This document shows positions 3,501 to 34,806 of a stretch of DNA of 44,601 bases, piece after piece. The translations under genes and the position numbers were made by a program. Position 1 is the first letter of the stretch. Every line of letters begins with the position of its first letter. The notes beneath the pieces were generated by a model. It was given only the letters and a program-made list of their open reading frames with translations. It did not search any database and was not told where the DNA came from. Source of the stretch: a virus (Duplodnaviria > Heunggongvirae > Uroviricota > Caudoviricetes); the IMG/VR virus record IMGVR_UViG_2711768005_000013; one strand, given 5' to 3'.

Positions 3501-4008
3501 CCACCACCACCGAGACCAGATACTGCGAGGTGGTTTTGCCCTTAATGGTGATGTCTTTTTCCGTCACCCAGCCACCGTTACGCTGTATCTGAACCAGCAG
3601 GCGGACTTCCGACGGATTCCTGTCTCCCTTTGAGGTGGTTTCCACCAGTGCCTGTACACCGAAGGTAAAGCGCAGACGGTCGATGTTTGCCGACGTGATG
3701 GTCCGGGTGATCGGCGTGTCATATTTCACTTCCGTACCCAGCACCGTCTCGGAGCCGGAGGATTCAAACCCCTCCGGCGGTGACTGCTCCTGCTCACCTG
3801 CCCGGAACACCACCGTGACGCCGGAGATGTTGGTATTCCCCTCATTGTCCAGCACCGGCGTACTGTTCAGCAGCACGCTTTTTAATCCATCCACCGGACC
3901 TTCAACCGGCCCTTCACTGATGGCATCGATCACACTCAGCAGCTGCGTGGACTTCAGGTTGTCCTTCGCTTCGCGCGGGGTATGCCCCTTACTGCTGCCT
4001 TTACCCAT
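572..4008 (-). CDS. J: Tail tip / host specificity protein J (interrupted by an N run)
   Basis: N-terminus [34 protein letters not shown] matches lambda J; conserved central region; C-terminal about 150 aa diverges from lambda J; total length not a multiple of 3 because of the N run. Confidence 0.9.
2669..2964. other. Run of N (unresolved or masked sequence) inside J
   Basis: Contiguous n characters in the sequence. Confidence 1.
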
Positions 4009-4068: not shown

Positions 4069-4716
4069 TCAGCGACCAATCACCACAACCTGACCACCAT
4101 CCCCTTCGTCTGCCGTGCTGATCTCCTGAGAAACCACACGTGACCCCACGCGCATTTCCCCGTACAGAACAGGCAGAACATTACCCTGGGCAACCATGTT
4201 ATCCAGTGACGAGAAATACGTGTTCTGTTTGCCGTTATCTGTACTGGCTGCCGTGGGCGTCCTGGCTTTCGGTGCCAGCATCTGCGCCACACCACCCAGG
4301 ATCATACTGGCCCCTGCTGCATACATACCCGATACAGCCGCGGCCCCCAGCCAGCCCACAGGGTTCCACCATGCCACCGCAATCAGCGCCGCACCCAGCA
4401 CCGCCTGAAACACACCGCCACTTTTGGCACCCGCCAGACGCGGAACGATGTGGATCACGGCACCATTTGCCAGCGGTTCATTAAGACGGGCAGATAATTC
4501 ATTTTCGCCTGCATCACGCCCGGCAATGCGCACCTGATACCAGCCGTCGCTCAGTTTCTGACGAAATGCCGGGAGCTGTGTGGCCAGTGCCCGGATGGCT
4601 TCGGCCCCCGTTTTCACACGAAGGTCGATGCGGCGGCCAAATCGCTGCAAATCCCCGTAAAGGCAGATGCGTGCCATGCCCGGTGACGCCAGAGGGAGTG
4701 TGTGCGTCGCTGCCAT
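4069..4716 (-). CDS. I: Tail assembly protein I
   Basis: MAATHTLPLASPGMARICLYGDLQRFGRRIDLRVKTGAEAIRALATQL matches lambda I; overlaps the K 3-prime end as in lambda. Confidence 0.85.
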   Translation of the reverse strand: MAATHTLPLASPGMARICLYGDLQRFGRRIDLRVKTGAEAIRALATQLPAFRQKLSDGWYQVRIAGRDAGENELSARLNEPLANGAVIHIVPRLAGAKSGGVFQAVLGAALIAVAWWNPVGWLGAAAVSGMYAAGASMILGGVAQMLAPKARTPTAASTDNGKQNTYFSSLDNMVAQGNVLPVLYGEMRVGSRVVSQEISTADEGDGGQVVVIGR

Positions 4717-24458: not shown

Positions 24459-24946
24459 TGCTGACCCCACAAACAGATTTCACGCTCAATCTCACGACGA
24501 GTCATGAGACCTTTCCATTGCTTACCGCCAGCATATGTCCAGCGACGTAGCTGATCACATGCGCCTTTGATATCGCCCTGGTTTATTTTGCGANNNNNNN
24601 NNNNNNNNNNNNNNNNNNNNNNNNNNNNNNNNNNNNNNNNNNNNNNNNNNNNNNNNNNNNNNNNNNNNNNNNNNNNNNNNNNNNNNNNNNNNNNNNNNNN
24701 NNNNNNNNNNNNNNNNNNNNNNNNNNNNNNNNNNNNNNNNNNNNNNNNNNNNNNNNNNNNNNNNNNNNNNNNNNNNNNNNNNNNNNNNNNNNNNNNNNNN
24801 NNNNNNNNNNNNNNNNNNNNNNNNNNNNNNNNNNNNNNNNNNNCCAGACCATCGTTACCACTTGGGCCAGTGATTAACACTGATGCTATAGCAATTGCTC
24901 CGCCACCAATAGCAGCAGCAACGACTTTTCGTAATGATGGAGGCAT
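24455..24946 (-). CDS. SAR endolysin (phage 21 R-type lysozyme), interrupted by an N run
   Basis: N-terminus [34 protein letters not shown] (signal-anchor-release domain) and C-terminus [38 protein letters not shown] match the phage 21 lysozyme. Confidence 0.85.
24595..24843. other. Run of N inside the endolysin gene
   Basis: Contiguous n characters. Confidence 1.
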
Positions 24947-28860: not shown

Positions 28861-29140
28861 TTCTCAATCTCTCGATGGCGCAGCGCAGCAGATGCCAGTT
28901 GTTCAGGCTGACGAATAAAGTATAAATAAACTGGCTATGGTGTAAAGCCCCACATAGCATGAACAAACACTACATATCAAATAGCTGGTACAAGGATAGA
29001 AATACGACACTTATTATTAAAAACGATTAGATAAATTACATTTTAATGTTATGCAAAAGTTCTTTTTTATCATAACATTTCAATAAAAGCATTACAGATG
29101 CAATCATCCCGTCATCATCAATTATTTAAGGTGGTTAAAC

Positions 29141-29227
29141 ATGGAAAATAACAAGTTCGCACATCTCGCTCCTTTTTTATCCGTAATCCTTTTCGCTTGT
29201 TGTTTTATATGGGCATTATTTTTATAA
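29141..29227 (+). CDS. Candidate small hydrophobic membrane peptide (28 aa), not in the supplied ORF track
   Basis: AAGGTGG SD 6 nt upstream of ATG; translates MENNKFAHLAPFLSVILFACCFIWALFL; lies in an 800-bp AT-rich stretch with no other credible ORF. Confidence 0.4.
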   Translation: MENNKFAHLAPFLSVILFACCFIWALFL

Positions 29228-29673
29228 AGTAGCCACATGATAAGTTGCTGGAATCATATTTCCCACTCAAGTCATTAACATTTGATAAGATATATCTAAA
29301 AGGACGCCTTTACATTATTTATGCGTATATAATTTATTTATATACACAGTAAAGGTATCCTGGGAAAATATTTATCGTTAAAAAATACATCATAAATAAT
29401 TAAGCTGAAATTTCAGAACACAACTAATACACACAATAAGGTTCAGTAACAGTAATCTATGTGGACTACATCGAGATTTTTTGATTAAACTTTAATAACT
29501 TATTCCTAACACACAGAATGCATAAACTAAAAGTAAAACAAATAGTTATACGAAAAACAACCATATTTATTCTATCTTCTCCTCTAATCAACATATCAAT
29601 TATGTGTTTCATAACAGCTTGACATAACCCTCCAAAAGATGCATTTTTAATGCATGTTTTGGAGGAGGTGGTT

Positions 29674-30012
29674 ATGACACACAAGAGAATTCCTAAAGAT
29701 TGGGTAATCAAACGCTCAACTCCGTTCTTCACAAAAGAGAACGTACCTTCAGCGTTATTAACACATCATAATACAGCAGCAGGTGTTTTTGGGCAGTTGT
29801 GCGTAATGGAAGGCACTGTAACATATTATGGTTTTACTGATGAGAATGCTACTGAACCGGAGATAAAAGTAGTCATTAATGCTGGCGCTTTTGCAACAAG
29901 CCCACCACAATACTGGCACCGTGTTGAACTAAGCGATGATGCTCAGTTTAATATTAACTTTTGGGTCGCTCCAGACTTTTCGGGCGAAAAAGTCTATAGC
30001 ACCAAAAAATAG
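29674..30012 (+). CDS. DUF1971 (TehB N-terminal-like) domain protein
   Basis: GGAGGAGG SD before ATG at 29674 (ORF-track start 29650 is upstream); motifs HHNTAAGVFGQL...PQYWHRVELSDD match the DUF1971 pattern HNTK.G.WG.L....P..WHRVE.LSDD. Confidence 0.6.
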   Translation: MTHKRIPKDWVIKRSTPFFTKENVPSALLTHHNTAAGVFGQLCVMEGTVTYYGFTDENATEPEIKVVINAGAFATSPPQYWHRVELSDDAQFNINFWVAPDFSGEKVYSTKK

Positions 30013-30041
30013 ATGATCATATTAAAAATGCTTTAACAGTC

Positions 30042-30078
30042 AGACCCGGCAGGGCTATCCCCGACGGGTCTCATTTTT
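30042..30078 (+). terminator. Intrinsic terminator downstream of the DUF1971 gene
   Basis: AGACCCG...CGGGTCT stem followed by CATTTTT, 30 nt after the stop codon. Confidence 0.45.
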
Positions 30079-30632
30079 GTAAATATATTGGTTCTACATT
30101 GACAGGAGACTTCAACCATAAGAAGTAATCTGAATACTTGAGCAATAAATTTACTTAAGATTAATGAGCGCACCTTGCCGGACAAAGATAAACCAAGGTA
30201 ACACCTTTTTTCTAGCCAGTATGTAATCAATCAGAAAGCCGCTCCATAAGAACAACAGCAAGACAATAAATTGCCATTACAGCCGCAATAGCCAGCGCAC
30301 ATTTGAGAACCAGCACGACAACCCCCTGTATTAGACGCACACCAGTCCTGATAAATATGAGGCTGTCTCGTCAGTGATTCAATACAACTATTGGGTATAG
30401 TTTCTGTGATTTTATTCTGTAGAAATGGAACACAACAACCAGTCACCACCAGCACTTCCTTAAATGCTCTAAGTCAGAAACAAGCCAACATTTTAGTCCG
30501 CTTTGAGCGATCTGCAGACATTGCTAGCAGCCTTCTGTGTGAATTCTCAGGGAGCAGGTCGGCATAGCATCACGTTGAGGCTCTTACCCTACTTGTTCAC
30601 ACCAACCCTAACTCCACAGACTGATTCATAAA

Positions 30633-31634
30633 TTAGTAATCTGCGTGTTTCGCACTTTTCAGAAATGCTTTCATATTTTCATTAGGTCGCTCAATTTCGA
30701 AGTTACTTCCATATAACTCTTGTAATTTTGGCCATAACTTACTTAATAACCCTCTCCTGCGATAAAATGGATGTATCCAAACGGTAGATAGGTACGGAGA
30801 ATTTGCATTTGAATTGTTTATTGTGACCAGCCCAACTAAACATTGTCGATAACCACTATTATCCATTGATTGTATTTCTTCGACGAATGGATACGCGATT
30901 ACATCAGTCCAACCATGATCGGTTGTATCCCATTGCATTCCGTCATGACATTCCTTCGACTGATAGCGGCGTAAAGCTACACACGCGAGCTTTTGCCAAT
31001 CTGGAGAATTAATTGTGATCTCTTCATCGTATGACGCGCCTATTGGAGCGGGTATTGGTCTGATTAATCCAGCATGGCATTCATCATAGAACTTCATGTT
31101 TCCCTCAGAAACGTTGTGTACGTTGGGTTGCTCCATGTGTGCGCCATTCAAAAATAGCTCTGATAGTAGTGTATCTACACTGTAATCTTTATTGATTATT
31201 GTCGGCTTAGAGTTTTTCTTATTAAGGCCGCGAGTAACGATTTTTTGATCAATGTTAACAACATGGAATAATCCGTCGGGGAGGCTAGCGAACCACGATG
31301 GGGCATCGGACCAGAATAGCATGCCTTTTGTACTTCTTAAGAGTTTAATTAAGTTAATACAAGCTTCTTCACTAGTCTTGCCGTTGATGCGAAGTATGTT
31401 AGGACTAAAGTAATATTCATCCATATCAGGGAATGCAGCTTCGCAAAACTCCTGTACATAATTTAGCACCTGGATTCTACAGAGATCATCATAGCTGGTA
31501 ATAACTAAGGGGGTATCTTCATTACTATTATGATTATCAATAATGCAATCTATAGCGAGACTTACTGCTTTGCGTATCACTTCAGTTGAATCTAACGACT
31601 CTAAAAATTTTGTCTTTCGTGTGCGAATATCCAT
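30633..31634 (-). CDS. Uncharacterised protein with C-terminal GNAT-like acetyltransferase motif
   Basis: 333 aa; C-terminal VWIHPFYRRRGLLSKLW...NENMKAFLKS resembles GNAT motif A; N-terminal about 220 aa unrecognised; 15 bp downstream of the preceding ORF. Confidence 0.45.
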   Translation of the reverse strand: MDIRTRKTKFLESLDSTEVIRKAVSLAIDCIIDNHNSNEDTPLVITSYDDLCRIQVLNYVQEFCEAAFPDMDEYYFSPNILRINGKTSEEACINLIKLLRSTKGMLFWSDAPSWFASLPDGLFHVVNIDQKIVTRGLNKKNSKPTIINKDYSVDTLLSELFLNGAHMEQPNVHNVSEGNMKFYDECHAGLIRPIPAPIGASYDEEITINSPDWQKLACVALRRYQSKECHDGMQWDTTDHGWTDVIAYPFVEEIQSMDNSGYRQCLVGLVTINNSNANSPYLSTVWIHPFYRRRGLLSKLWPKLQELYGSNFEIERPNENMKAFLKSAKHADY

Positions 31635-31649
31635 GTATGACCTGCGCTA

Positions 31650-32672
31650 TTAAAATTCATGAATGAACGGTTTGTCATCTGGTTGCAAAATGGTGGTTTT
31701 ATTCGTTGCTACATTTAAACTGTTGTAGAGCATAATTGCCAGGTTCGATGCATTTTCAATCAGCGTTTCAAGATCCTGGTCTGTAATCACTACGAGGTTC
31801 CCTTCTTTATCCTTTCCACCACGATGCACTAAGTGATTTCGATTGAGGGTTGCCAATTCAATAGCTTCTATCGGACAGTCTTTTTGTACTTTTATATCGA
31901 ATGTAGCTTCATAGCGGTCGATTACCTTTTTAGTGCTATGCCAGCTTGCACTGATCAAGTGTTCCTTGATTGACCTGATTAGCTCTCCCCTAATTTTCTC
32001 GATGGGTTCACCCTTGAAAGGCAACGCAGCAATATCTTTGCTTACTTTAAATTCAGTCTTACCTTTTTCTATACAATTGGCTATGTAGACATCATCTTTC
32101 TCTATAGAATTAATGAATAGCTCAACATAAAGCGTTTCCAAAGCTGTAATAACATTCGTGTAGAGCAAACTAAGCAAGTGGTTTTTTTGCTGTTGTTCAG
32201 TTTTATCTTTTGCAAGTTTTTTTATTTTATCGATATTATCAATGAATTTTAAATACGGATTACCGGAAGACGTTACAGCGTCGTAGATATCATCATCGTA
32301 CCAATCATCTATATTATTTGAGTTTCCAGACCAGTCAAAACATTGTGTTTGTAATTCATCTACTAATTCCTCAATATACTCAGATTTAACATATTGACCG
32401 AAGATGGATTGTAGTTCTTCGCTCGCATCATACGGCCCGCCATATATGTAAGCATAGCCACCTTCTCTACTTTCATACGGACAAGCATTTGCCGGATCTT
32501 CAAAGTTTTCAAAGAACCAGTTTTTCATTACTTCGAGTTGATCTTTTTTGCTTATGTATTTTAAAGATTTTAGTGGAACTTTCTTTCCATTAACCTCGAA
32601 AACAATTTTCACGATGTAACGCTCCCTTGTATCAATTGCGCAACTATTATACCACAGCGAAATACAGGGCAT
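31650..32672 (-). CDS. Uncharacterised protein with C-terminal HEPN-type Rx4H motif
   Basis: Start taken at ATG 32670-32672 with AAGGAGG SD 6 nt upstream (ORF-track GTG start at 32741 less likely); RNHLVH at 31824-31841; rest of protein unrecognised. Confidence 0.45.
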   Translation of the reverse strand: MPCISLWYNSCAIDTRERYIVKIVFEVNGKKVPLKSLKYISKKDQLEVMKNWFFENFEDPANACPYESREGGYAYIYGGPYDASEELQSIFGQYVKSEYIEELVDELQTQCFDWSGNSNNIDDWYDDDIYDAVTSSGNPYLKFIDNIDKIKKLAKDKTEQQQKNHLLSLLYTNVITALETLYVELFINSIEKDDVYIANCIEKGKTEFKVSKDIAALPFKGEPIEKIRGELIRSIKEHLISASWHSTKKVIDRYEATFDIKVQKDCPIEAIELATLNRNHLVHRGGKDKEGNLVVITDQDLETLIENASNLAIMLYNSLNVATNKTTILQPDDKPFIHEF

Positions 32673-32810
32673 AACCTGCCTCCTTAAACTAACATACCAT
32701 GAGCCAGCAATGTCCGCTATTGGCACAAAGCGGACAACCACGCTAGCTCTCCCCTGTGCCAGAAAAATGTCAATTTACATATGAACTAATGCTCTTTGAT
32801 CTAGTAACGT

Positions 32811-34026: not shown

Positions 34027-34806
34027 TTACTTCTCAATTCCTGGCTGGACGACATTCGGACGCCAGCTCTCCCAGTTAAAATTCACCCATCGCCCGCCGT
34101 NNNNNNNNNNNNNNNNNNNNNNNNNNNNNNNNNNNNNNNNNNNNNNNNNNNNNNNNNNNNNNNNNNNNNNNNNNNNNNNNNNNNNNNNNNNNNNNNNNNN
34201 NNNNNNNNNNNNNNNNNNNNNNNNNNNNNNNNNNNNNNNNNNNNNNNNNNNNNNNNNNNNNNNNNNNNNNNNNNNNNNNNNNNNNNNNNNNNNNNNNNNN
34301 NNNNNNNNNNNNNNNNNNNNNNNNNNNNNNNNNNNNNNNNNNNNNNNNNNNNNNNNNNNNNNNNNNNNNNNNNNNNNNNNNNNNNNNNNNNNNNNNNNNN
34401 NNNNNNNNNNNNNNNNNNNNNNNNNNNNNNNNNNNNNNNNNNNGATAGCTGCCGCTAAGTGGTTCTTCCCGGTACCAGGTTTTCCGCTGAACGCAAAATT
34501 TGTACACCCGGTCATCAGTTCATCAGCGATGGATTTCGCCTGACTCAACGCGTATCGCTGCGCTTCGTTCTGCACCTGGTAATTCGAAAACGAGCATTTG
34601 CGGTGCAATGGCTGGATGCCAGAGCGATTCAGAATTTTTTCCACCCGCAACTGACGATTCTGACGGTTGATCTCCTCACAACGTTTCTGGCCTTCGGAAA
34701 GTTGCCACTCGCGCCACTCCGCTACCGTCTTGAATGGCGCGGTTACATGTGACGGGGCCAGTCTGCGGATACGTTCAAGAACGTCGCCTGTCGCAATATT
34801 TTTCAT
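34027..34806 (-). CDS. ydaV: DnaC-like replication / helicase loader protein, interrupted by an N run
   Basis: Walker [16 protein letters not shown]; position after ydaU-like gene as in Rac. Confidence 0.7.
34101..34443. other. Run of N inside the DnaC-like gene
   Basis: Contiguous n characters. Confidence 1.

Follow-up and report, generated by a model that had tools for sequence, protein, structure and literature searches.

DS-33, a HEPN-GNAT gene pair of a Rac-type prophage, probably forms a self-contained mobile defense cassette with a single HEPN effector

Does the AT-rich gene pair between the replication and the nin/Q genes of a lambdoid prophage protect its host against other phages, and if so, which of the two genes is responsible and what is the unit that moves? 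We addressed these questions for a 44,601-nucleotide stretch of DNA, here called the window, from the IMG/VR virus record IMGVR_UViG_2711768005_000013. Two codirectional open reading frames (ORFs) lie on its minus strand, gene A (31650..32672/32741) upstream of gene B (30633..31634), and a first-pass annotation made from the letters alone had proposed them as a candidate prophage-borne defense or exclusion system of undescribed architecture, composed of a HEPN-motif protein and a GNAT-like protein. We found that the pair is the published defense system DS-33. Taken together, the evidence makes it probable that DS-33 is carried by a self-contained mobile defense cassette of 2.24 kb in which the HEPN protein A is the only effector and the GNAT protein B is an accessory. 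The genes and their junction are as follows.

31650..32612, minus strand: gene A (DS-33A; WP_014639476.1), 320 amino acids from GTG 32612
31635..31649, minus strand: A-B junction, TAGCGCAGGTCATAC, 15 bp, nearly invariant across diverged cassettes
30633..31634, minus strand: gene B (DS-33B allele with P289; WP_000354966.1), 333 amino acids

The product of A is identical to DS-33A (WP_014639476.1; Table S8 of PMC13092281) at 320 of 320 positions, and that of B agrees with its DS-33 counterpart at 332 of 333; gene order and the 15-bp spacing are also alike. The window pair is therefore DS-33 of DefensePredictor (Science 2026, PMC13092281) and already known. Table S6 of that paper lists the operon WP_014639476.1 plus WP_000354965.1 from an E. 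coli strain under the working name "GNAT" as defensive (TRUE) and as system DS-33. Sequence strings, WP accessions in main texts, and HEPN and GNAT keywords had no match in literature searches, and the match came from the DefensePredictor supplement; no follow-up paper on DS-33 was found in the literature. In that study each system, including its native promoter region, was placed on a low-copy plasmid in MG1655 and exposed to a panel of 24 phages. The values in its Table S7 are log10 protection in two replicates, and those for DS-33 read as follows (PMC13092281).

Wild type: T7 3.8/2.6, T3 3.3/2.4, Bas67 4.0/2.0, Bas26 5.0/5.9, T5 0.8/0.1
HEPN deletion: T7 0.08/-0.30, T3 -0.48/0, Bas67 0/-0.18, Bas26 0.52/0.30, T5 0.54/0.08
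R258A: T7 0.78/0.46, T3 -0.30/0.30, Bas67 0.52/0, Bas26 0.74/0.43, T5 0.37/0.30
GNAT deletion: T7 4.8/4.3, T3 3.3/3.3, Bas67 4.0/3.3, Bas26 5.0/4.9, T5 1.7/0.5

Protection thus amounts to 2 to 6 logs against T7, T3, Bas26, and Bas67 and is abolished by deletion of the HEPN gene or by the R258A substitution, and deletion of the GNAT gene leaves defense intact and often stronger (PMC13092281). The DefensePredictor log-odds were 9.45 for A and 1.08 for B (PMC13092281). The central proposal of the first-pass annotation, a prophage-borne HEPN plus GNAT defense system, had accordingly already been made and tested, and reading the raw sequence had picked out a true defense system. Nearly all of the checks that it suggested, among them cloning with the native upstream region followed by a phage panel, a point mutant of the HEPN arginine, and single-gene deletions, are found in PMC13092281, with resistance conferred by the operon and lost with the HEPN gene or with R258, the very arginine of the Rx4H motif that had been highlighted. 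Two of its suppositions did not survive. The architecture is not undescribed, since proteins joining NTD1 to HEPN had been listed by 2013 (PMC3710099) and the cloned operon was shown to be defensive in 2026 (PMC13092281), and the GNAT protein is not an effector of the defense, given the deletion result and the occurrence of A without B in most lineages.

In the 320-residue numbering, A consists of a HEPN/RES-NTD1 domain (approximately residues 1 to 115) followed by a HEPN RNase domain (approximately 120 to 310) and has the all-alpha, up-down helical bundle fold of the HEPN superfamily. The motif R258-N-H-L-V-H263, encoded at 31824-31841, had been read as the Rx4-6H signature of HEPN RNases, and this reading was borne out: R258, H263, and R264 (R278, H283, and R284 in a 340-residue numbering) are invariant in 56/56 sequences, and R258A abolishes the published defense. 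The N-terminal part of the window protein matched PF18870 (HEPN/RES-NTD1) with E=2.3e-5 and 25.2 bits, below the gathering score of 27.4, and 40 of the 56 family members matched this model at E<=1e-3. PF18735 (HEPN_RiboL-PSP) was matched by 25 of the 56 aligned members, with a best E value of 7e-11, and by the window protein not even at E<=10. The family shares the NTD1 motif WFxxNFEDPxxxxPYxSxEGGYxYIxGGPY. No functional name came from NCBIfam or PHROGs (PHROGs 17908 and 16994 are of "unknown function"). The PADLOC run that had been proposed returned no system model: in PADLOC-DB v2, whose PD-T4-2 models did not match A at E<=1, the best matches of A were to unrelated models at E values of 0.01 to 0.03, and B had none.

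The closest published relatives fit this assignment. Proteins fusing NTD1 to HEPN or RES domains, with a Klebsiella example, were described by Anantharaman et al. 2013 (PMC3710099), with a predicted role in defense or conflict; members of the MAE_18760 and RiboL-PSP families have the same two-domain architecture as A, although that work was purely computational and described no GNAT partner. The remote-homology column (HHblits) of PMC13092281 names PD-T4-2_B as the known defense protein nearest to A, with a probability of 96.1 and a coverage of 0.55. PD-T4-2_B (E. coli ECOR65; Vassallo et al. 2022) shares the RiboL-PSP-type HEPN domain, but the homology is remote and confined to the HEPN half, and partner genes and phage specificity (T4) differ. 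AbiD/AbiF (= Abi_2), AbiJ, and ApeA resemble A in combining an N-terminal regulatory or sensor domain with a C-terminal HEPN RNase, in being sufficient alone, and in residing in defense islands and prophages. The RiboL-PSP HEPN family is distantly related to AbiD/F (PMC3710099); however, comparison of the A family with an Abi_2 protein of Shewanella by hhalign gave no significant profile match (probability 0.1).

Where A begins, and from where it is transcribed, matters for cloning DS-33. The elements upstream of A are the following.

32622..32628, minus strand: Shine-Dalgarno sequence AAGGGAG, 9 nt upstream of GTG 32612; AAGGGAG, AAGGAGG, or AAGGAAG in all diverged cassettes
32646..32654, minus strand: predicted cassette promoter, extended -10 TGgTATAAT, without a good -35; conservation based
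32670..32685, minus strand: AAGGAGG (32685-32679) with ATG (32672), unlikely to be the start of A; precedes the conserved -10

A had been assigned 340 amino acids from ATG 32672, behind a perfect AAGGAGG. Both ATG and Shine-Dalgarno sequence are present, but they are a poor candidate for the start of A, which most likely lies at GTG 32612 and yields 320 amino acids. All 55 of 55 aligned homologs begin at the MK(I/V)VF position, annotation by the Prokaryotic Genome Annotation Pipeline (PGAP) also gives 320 amino acids, and residues 1 to 19 are disordered in an AlphaFold model of the 340-residue form. Among diverged cassettes the ATG is changed to ATA in three (L028, L029, and L033 of our locus collection) and followed by an in-frame TAA in three others (L027, L030, and L058), and GTG 32612 with its purine-rich Shine-Dalgarno sequence is conserved across diverged cassettes in unrelated contexts. 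The upstream DNA is unrelated among loci, and positions T1, A2, and T6 of the -10 hexamer are unchanged in all variants (TACAAT, TAAAAT, and TATAAT). Since this -10 lies between the ATG and the GTG, the ATG would be upstream of the likely cassette promoter. A scan with consensus models found no promoter upstream of A and no intrinsic terminator inside the unit; the extended -10 was missed by it because it has no -35. A sigma-54 promoter (TGGC(A/T)C-N5-ATGT) was considered and dropped, as the -12 GC element is missing. The conserved leader holds a second extended -10-like element, TGGTATGTT, at 32691-32699 on the minus strand, 45 bp upstream of TGGTATAAT; each of the two is followed by AG (TGGTATnnTAG), the AAGGAGG-ATG falls between them, and the upstream one could be a second promoter or a regulator site. 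Neither leader nor trailer matched a relevant Rfam family or showed a significant RNA fold (z-scores of the trailer, -0.5 and -0.05).

The limits of the unit were revealed by comparing A+B loci with unrelated flanks, in which homology starts exactly at GTCCGCTTTGTGCCAATAGCGGAC and ends exactly at its inverted copy, GTCCGCTTTGAGCGATCTGCAGAC.

32706..32735, minus strand: L-type palindrome, core GTCCGCTTTGTGCCAATAGCGGAC (32735-32712) plus inner flank ATTGCT, upstream cassette end
30526..30632, minus strand: noncoding trailer downstream of B, conserved across A+B loci
30496..30525, plus strand: R-type palindrome, core GTCCGCTTTGAGCGATCTGCAGAC (30496-30519) plus inner flank ATTGCT, downstream cassette end

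The resulting unit measures 2,240 bp (window 30496-32735) and comprises, besides A and B, a conserved leader (∼100 bp, including the promoter) and a conserved trailer (∼110 to 190 bp). The palindromes are 24 nt long and inverted, the L type being GTCCGCTTyGTGCCArrAGCGGAC (spacer GTGCCA) and the R type having the spacer TCGCTC; a pattern search of the window found exactly these two sites, with 0 expected by chance.

How such a unit would act can be outlined as follows. In the lysogen, the cassette would be transcribed from its own promoter, and A would be held autoinhibited until infection, probably via its NTD1 domain or its oligomeric state. On infection, A would cleave RNA through a composite HEPN active site, and the cleavage would stop translation of the phage and probably also of the host, making DS-33 a single-effector system of the abortive-infection type. 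B would be a nonessential accessory, most probably lowering the activity of A or having a role of its own.

Several points weigh against this picture. The account of DS-33 in PMC13092281 contains no RNase activity, RNA target, trigger, or abortive phenotype, and its main text does not discuss DS-33 by name. The window A misses the curated Pfam thresholds for both of its domains (25.2 versus 27.4 bits for PF18870; no match for PF18735), and the promoter is predicted from conservation alone. Furthermore, the finding that B is dispensable was obtained with a rare allele, L289, so that the experiment could understate the importance of a fully active B. On DS-33, PMC13092281 is silent about mechanism, trigger, target, cassette boundaries, promoter, and mobility; what is added here is the P289L difference in the B that was tested and the palindrome-bounded, self-promoted 2.24-kb cassette.

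That A can act by itself is also indicated by its distribution. Genomes supplied 12 B loci and metagenomes 80 A loci, and these were then searched with profiles of both A and B. The two genes are adjacent only where A shares at least ∼83% identity with that of the window; more than 50 loci from several phyla carry A homologs of <=72% identity without B, and most B homologs (39 to 86% identical) occur without A. No conserved alternative partner of solo A or solo B was found among the collected loci. The survey of homolog neighborhoods that had been suggested placed A alone in defense islands, next to AbiH, a DpnII/MboI-type restriction enzyme, Mrr, DUF4145, DUF2326, and integrases, and solo B was seen beside SIR2_2, Mrr_cat, a HEPN_Toprim_N protein, Abi_2, and prophage ends.

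Purifying selection acts on both genes in the A+B clade: the median omega (dN/dS, the ratio of nonsynonymous to synonymous divergence) is 0.17 in A and 0.27 in B. Their divergences go together, dN(A) correlating with dN(B) (r=0.95 over 66 pairs, with dS up to ∼0.8). The junction is nearly invariant, and the genes are likely cotranscribed and coupled in expression. Decay usually loses A and keeps B. In Rahnella contaminans (L006, 7817-9002), only the final ∼60 nt of A are left between the L palindrome, leader, and -10 on one side and an intact B on the other; this deletion derivative sits in an antirestriction/RadC island. A prophage deletion that fuses DnaC' to 'B has likewise removed A, and A is frameshifted beside an intact B in two loci (L043 and L052); one locus (L016) shows the opposite, an intact A with a frameshifted B. 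In E. coli MB56 (L099, 1769-5131), A lies between two copies of ISSen4, of which one interrupts its junction with B and the other sits 73 bp ahead of its start; they separate A from B and from part of the leader. The insertion sequence (IS) insertions found in two E. coli cassettes are uninformative, because A is intact in both. The frequency of solo A, the lack of a replacement partner, the codivergence of A and B, and the decay pattern led us to regard A as a self-sufficient effector and B as a linked accessory, in agreement with the published deletions, in which the HEPN gene defends and the GNAT gene is not required.

What, then, is B? It is composed of an N-terminal domain of ∼170 residues and a divergent GNAT acyltransferase domain (∼175 to 333) with the GNAT alpha/beta fold. 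The resemblance of its C terminus, VWIHPFYRRRGLL, to GNAT motif A had been pointed out and was upheld. Motif A is R292-x-x-G295-x-L297 and follows an invariant H288-P289-F290; the loop R292-R-R-G295-L-L297 corresponds to Q/R-x-x-G-x-G/A with L or M in place of the final G/A, and H288, P289, and R292 are invariant in 44/44 sequences. The C-terminal half scored 21.4 bits against PF00583, above the gathering score of 20.7. Among solved structures, those closest to B belong to protein lysine and N-terminal acetyltransferases (ATAT-2, ESCO1, NatD, HAT1, and MYST) and also to small-molecule acetyltransferases. The N-terminal ∼170 residues had no match in profile searches, and an exhaustive profile search found this domain only in full-length relatives of B. 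Like the GNAT toxins TacT, AtaT, ItaT, and KacT, B has a GNAT fold of ∼160 residues and resides on mobile elements; it differs from them in its extra ∼170-residue domain, in having no neighboring ribbon-helix-helix (RHH)/DUF1778 antitoxin, in being kept alone in the Rahnella derivative, and in being nearest to protein and small-molecule acetyltransferases. No toxin model of NCBIfam or Pfam matched B.

A and B might be independent single-gene modules that merely share a cassette, B either defending against phages outside the panel or making a phage-beneficial modification of a host or phage factor. We consider this possible, though clearly less probable than an accessory role in a single-effector system. 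At least 14 loci carry a full-length B without A in varied contexts (SIR2_2, Mrr_cat, Abi_2, the end of a Mu-like prophage, and ddrB-ParB), B matches PHROG 36762, and its GNAT module also exists as a stand-alone family of ∼160 amino acids (E values from 1e-37 to 1e-20), two members of which are encoded in phages, where their genes are coupled to a primase/helicase-like gene at its 3' end. The purifying selection on B and the facts that it was not needed against five phages and received its low log-odds of only 1.08 (PMC13092281) point the same way. Independence is, however, hard to reconcile with the invariant junction, with the strict coinheritance of A and B across dS up to ∼0.7, and with the reproducible shift of A-dependent protection upon deletion of B; the repeated position of the GNAT domain beside HEPN-type genes is a weaker argument, coming from 2 or 3 independent cases. 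This last association (Abi_2 and HEPN_Toprim_N) was set aside as evidence for a B-HEPN partnership, as it may just reflect colocation in defense islands.

The two stand-alone phage genes (L107, 4929-5411, and L108, 2938-3420) lie just before terminase and overlap the 3' end of a DUF3987 primase-like gene or of an 802-amino-acid gene; they represent an uncharacterized GNAT subfamily with the conserved motifs SxxWQ, RRY, and HPFxR. Two other arrangements of B homologs were observed. An ORF of ∼102 to 104 amino acids is conserved 61 bp upstream of a 53%-identical B homolog (L102/L103, 3626-4996; L008 and L011, 7626-8996) in a Shewanella genome and in metagenome-assembled genomes of Colwellia and Paraglaciecola, with an Abi_2 (HEPN) gene further upstream in the Shewanella locus, and may form with it a different B-containing module. 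In another locus (L014, 1-2483), a 43%-identical B homolog is followed after 15 bp by a gene for a 504-amino-acid SIR2_2-domain protein; the spacing equals that between A and B, but here the B homolog comes first and the effector is of another kind.

The sole difference between the window B and the B of the tested DS-33 clone is residue 289, a proline in the window (codon 30768-30770) and a leucine in the clone. P289 lies in the HPF motif directly before the coenzyme A (CoA) pyrophosphate loop and is invariant in 44/44 sequences of the B family and in 17/17 of an alignment of the B C-terminal domain with stand-alone mini-GNATs. The P289 allele was found on at least 1,000 contigs and L289 on 31, and all 42 of 42 B copies in the collected loci carry P. 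Since the rare L289 affects an invariant residue, the published deletion test was made against a possibly weakened B; judging from conservation, the tested allele may be a hypomorph. Removal of this L289 B raised protection against T7 by 1.0 to 1.7 logs in both replicates and against Bas67 by 0 to 1.3 logs (PMC13092281). This hints at a negative, tuning role of B, although polarity or altered expression would explain it equally well.

A more specific version of such a role is that B with an intact HPF motif, as in the window and at least 97% of sampled copies, acts as an acetyl-CoA-dependent brake on the HEPN nuclease, acetylating DS-33A or its substrate to set the firing threshold. We offer this tentatively and think it rather unlikely. 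If this is true, B would do by acetylation what the MntA antitoxin does by AMPylation, which would be new, and "GNAT dispensable" would understate B. B is conserved, coinherited, and present in ∼4% of complete E. coli genomes, and the only experiment on it used a rare allele.

Still less probable, in our estimate, is that A and B form an obligate pair of a toxin and an enzymatic antitoxin like the type VII HepT/MntA system, with infection relieving the brake; the GNAT protein would acetylate the HEPN nuclease, for example at the conserved lysine of the HRGGKDK stretch beside the catalytic histidine, and so silence A. In both systems a HEPN RNase gene adjoins an enzyme able to modify HEPN covalently. 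The partner is a GNAT here and an MNT nucleotidyltransferase there, no MNT domain was found in B or its neighbors, and the gene order is reversed. An obligate pair would be in keeping with the tight 15-bp linkage and the codivergence of the genes, with a toxin-like direction of decay (A lost and B kept in Rahnella, in the two loci with frameshifted A, and in the DnaC'-'B fusion), with the protein acetyltransferases among the nearest structures of B, with the gain in protection against T7 and Bas67 on its deletion, and with the suspicion that the tested B was a hypomorph. Against it stand the viability and good defense of the strain with the GNAT deletion (PMC13092281), the many A homologs without B, the intact A beside a frameshifted B, and the intact A of MB56, separated from its B by an IS copy. 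We retain the single-effector reading, with B as an accessory.

How the cassette moves is suggested by its boundaries. Palindromes of the same family were found at ten loci (L026, L028, L029, L030, L033, L096, L097, L100, L101, and L106), and in four of these (L026, L028, L029, and L033) palindrome-bounded cargo is arranged in arrays with separations of 14 to 18 bp. The cargo includes two Gabija-like pairs (an OLD-type ATPase-TOPRIM protein and a UvrD helicase), an orphan N6/N4 DNA methylase, and PhzF-like and unknown proteins. In E. coli K-12, the Qin prophage (L096) has L and R palindromes at 3501-3524 and 4492-4515 that enclose ydfV/flxA beside relBE-hokD. The IncF plasmid NZ_CP069974.1 (L097) has outer flanks identical to those of Qin, ACGGTGATCACT and ATTAGCATAGGCTAT, next to relB, and the slot between the palindromes holds ydfV/flxA in Qin and A+B in the plasmid. 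The R palindrome of the plasmid is a hybrid of the two, from which we infer that the crossover fell inside the palindrome. At the Rac position of the window, strains EEC_W5 and fS25a carry a different cassette of ∼1 kb between the same palindromes, which agrees with the earlier notion of a hotspot for accessory (moron) genes.

A 39-nt probe had matches in 3,392 of 5,426 E. coli genomes and in 1,857 mostly conjugative plasmids, chiefly from Klebsiella, Enterobacter, and Pantoea. On a Pantoea agglomerans megaplasmid there are ∼13 sites per 40 kb, intergenic and mostly in [R]-14 bp-[L] doublets, whose cargo includes a PAAR toxin/Imm74 module and a small GNAT gene. We read the palindromes as a repeat family resembling repetitive extragenic palindromic (REP) sequences and bacterial interspersed mosaic elements (BIMEs), the halves of which would travel with the cargo and act as exchange points. 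Like REP/BIME (REPIN) sequences, they are short, intergenic, present in many copies per replicon, and arranged in inverted doublets. The exchange may proceed by short-homology recombination, for example by RecET or Red in prophages, or by a site-specific enzyme, and we could not decide between the two. No REP-associated tyrosine transposase (RAYT), integrase, or other dedicated recombinase was identified, although no search was aimed at RAYT. At one array locus, an IS110-family transposase gene (L029, 6650-7773) lies 57 bp from an R-type palindrome; palindromic repeats are known targets of IS110-family elements.

DS-33 would thus belong to a wider population of modules that share one REP-like palindrome family and are swapped between prophages and plasmids, and if a dedicated mechanism stands behind the swaps, it would help to explain the reshuffling of defense and toxin cargo among the mobile elements of Enterobacterales. 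Discrete, exchangeable modules bracketed by sites are also known as pdif modules in Acinetobacter and as integron cassettes. An integron cassette is promoterless and has a single 3' attC with the cores RYYYAAC...GTTRRRY; the DS-33 cassette differs in carrying both of its ends and its own promoter. Searches of Rfam and of the literature by sequence string gave no match for the palindromes, and several known site types were rejected by inspection. The inner flanks, ATTGCTGGC and GCTAGCAAT, do not fit the attC core, and there is a palindrome at both ends together with an own promoter and leader; the core also does not fit an XerCD/dif-like site, and the palindrome sequence is unlike the E. coli REP consensus; and no target-site duplication, as expected of transposon terminal repeats, was visible in the flanks. 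The L-palindrome spacer GTGCCAA bears a resemblance to the sfx core of the R64 shufflon.

The shared exchange sites also bear on the weakest alternative, that the cassette is mainly an addiction or stabilization module for its carrier elements and phage protection a side effect: the use of the same palindrome-bounded sites as the toxin-antitoxin cassette relBE-hokD (K-12 Qin and the IncF plasmid) and the presence of the cassette on conjugative plasmids as well as prophages would suit it, but it is highly improbable given the strong and specific phage protection by the cassette when cloned alone, the tolerance of A without B, the Gabija-like defense pairs in neighboring array cassettes, and the lack of evidence for postsegregational killing.

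In the window, the cassette lies between the replication and nin/Q modules of a Rac-like prophage, as the first-pass annotation had placed it; its two minus-strand ORFs with their 15-bp gap were confirmed as described. Upstream are DnaC-like, DUF1627, and DUF977 genes, and downstream are DUF1971/TehB, DUF1367, DUF1364, and DUF1133 genes. The AT richness that had been judged by eye was borne out by the computed GC contents: 0.390 for the cassette unit (0.361 for A and 0.391 for B), 0.489 and 0.488 for flanking phage genes, and 0.467 for the window. E. coli FORC_081 holds an identical copy in a Rac-type prophage with the order ttcA-intR ... ydaT, ydaU, DnaC, DUF1627, DUF977, A, B, DUF1971/TehB, DUF1367, DUF1364, DUF1133, and lysis genes, where both A and B are annotated as "hypothetical protein." At least 80% of the region was present in 205 of 5,426 complete E. 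coli genomes (∼4%).

The stretch beside the cassette at 29000-30495 is also AT rich (GC content, 0.35), carries the DUF1971/TehB-family gene on the opposite strand (29650-30012), and probably represents further accessory cargo; its far side showed no boundary palindrome. The window contains three masked runs of N (2668-2964, 24594-24843, and 34101-34443), which produce artificially low GC values in the composition profile, and the last of them interrupts the DnaC-like replication gene (34027-34806).

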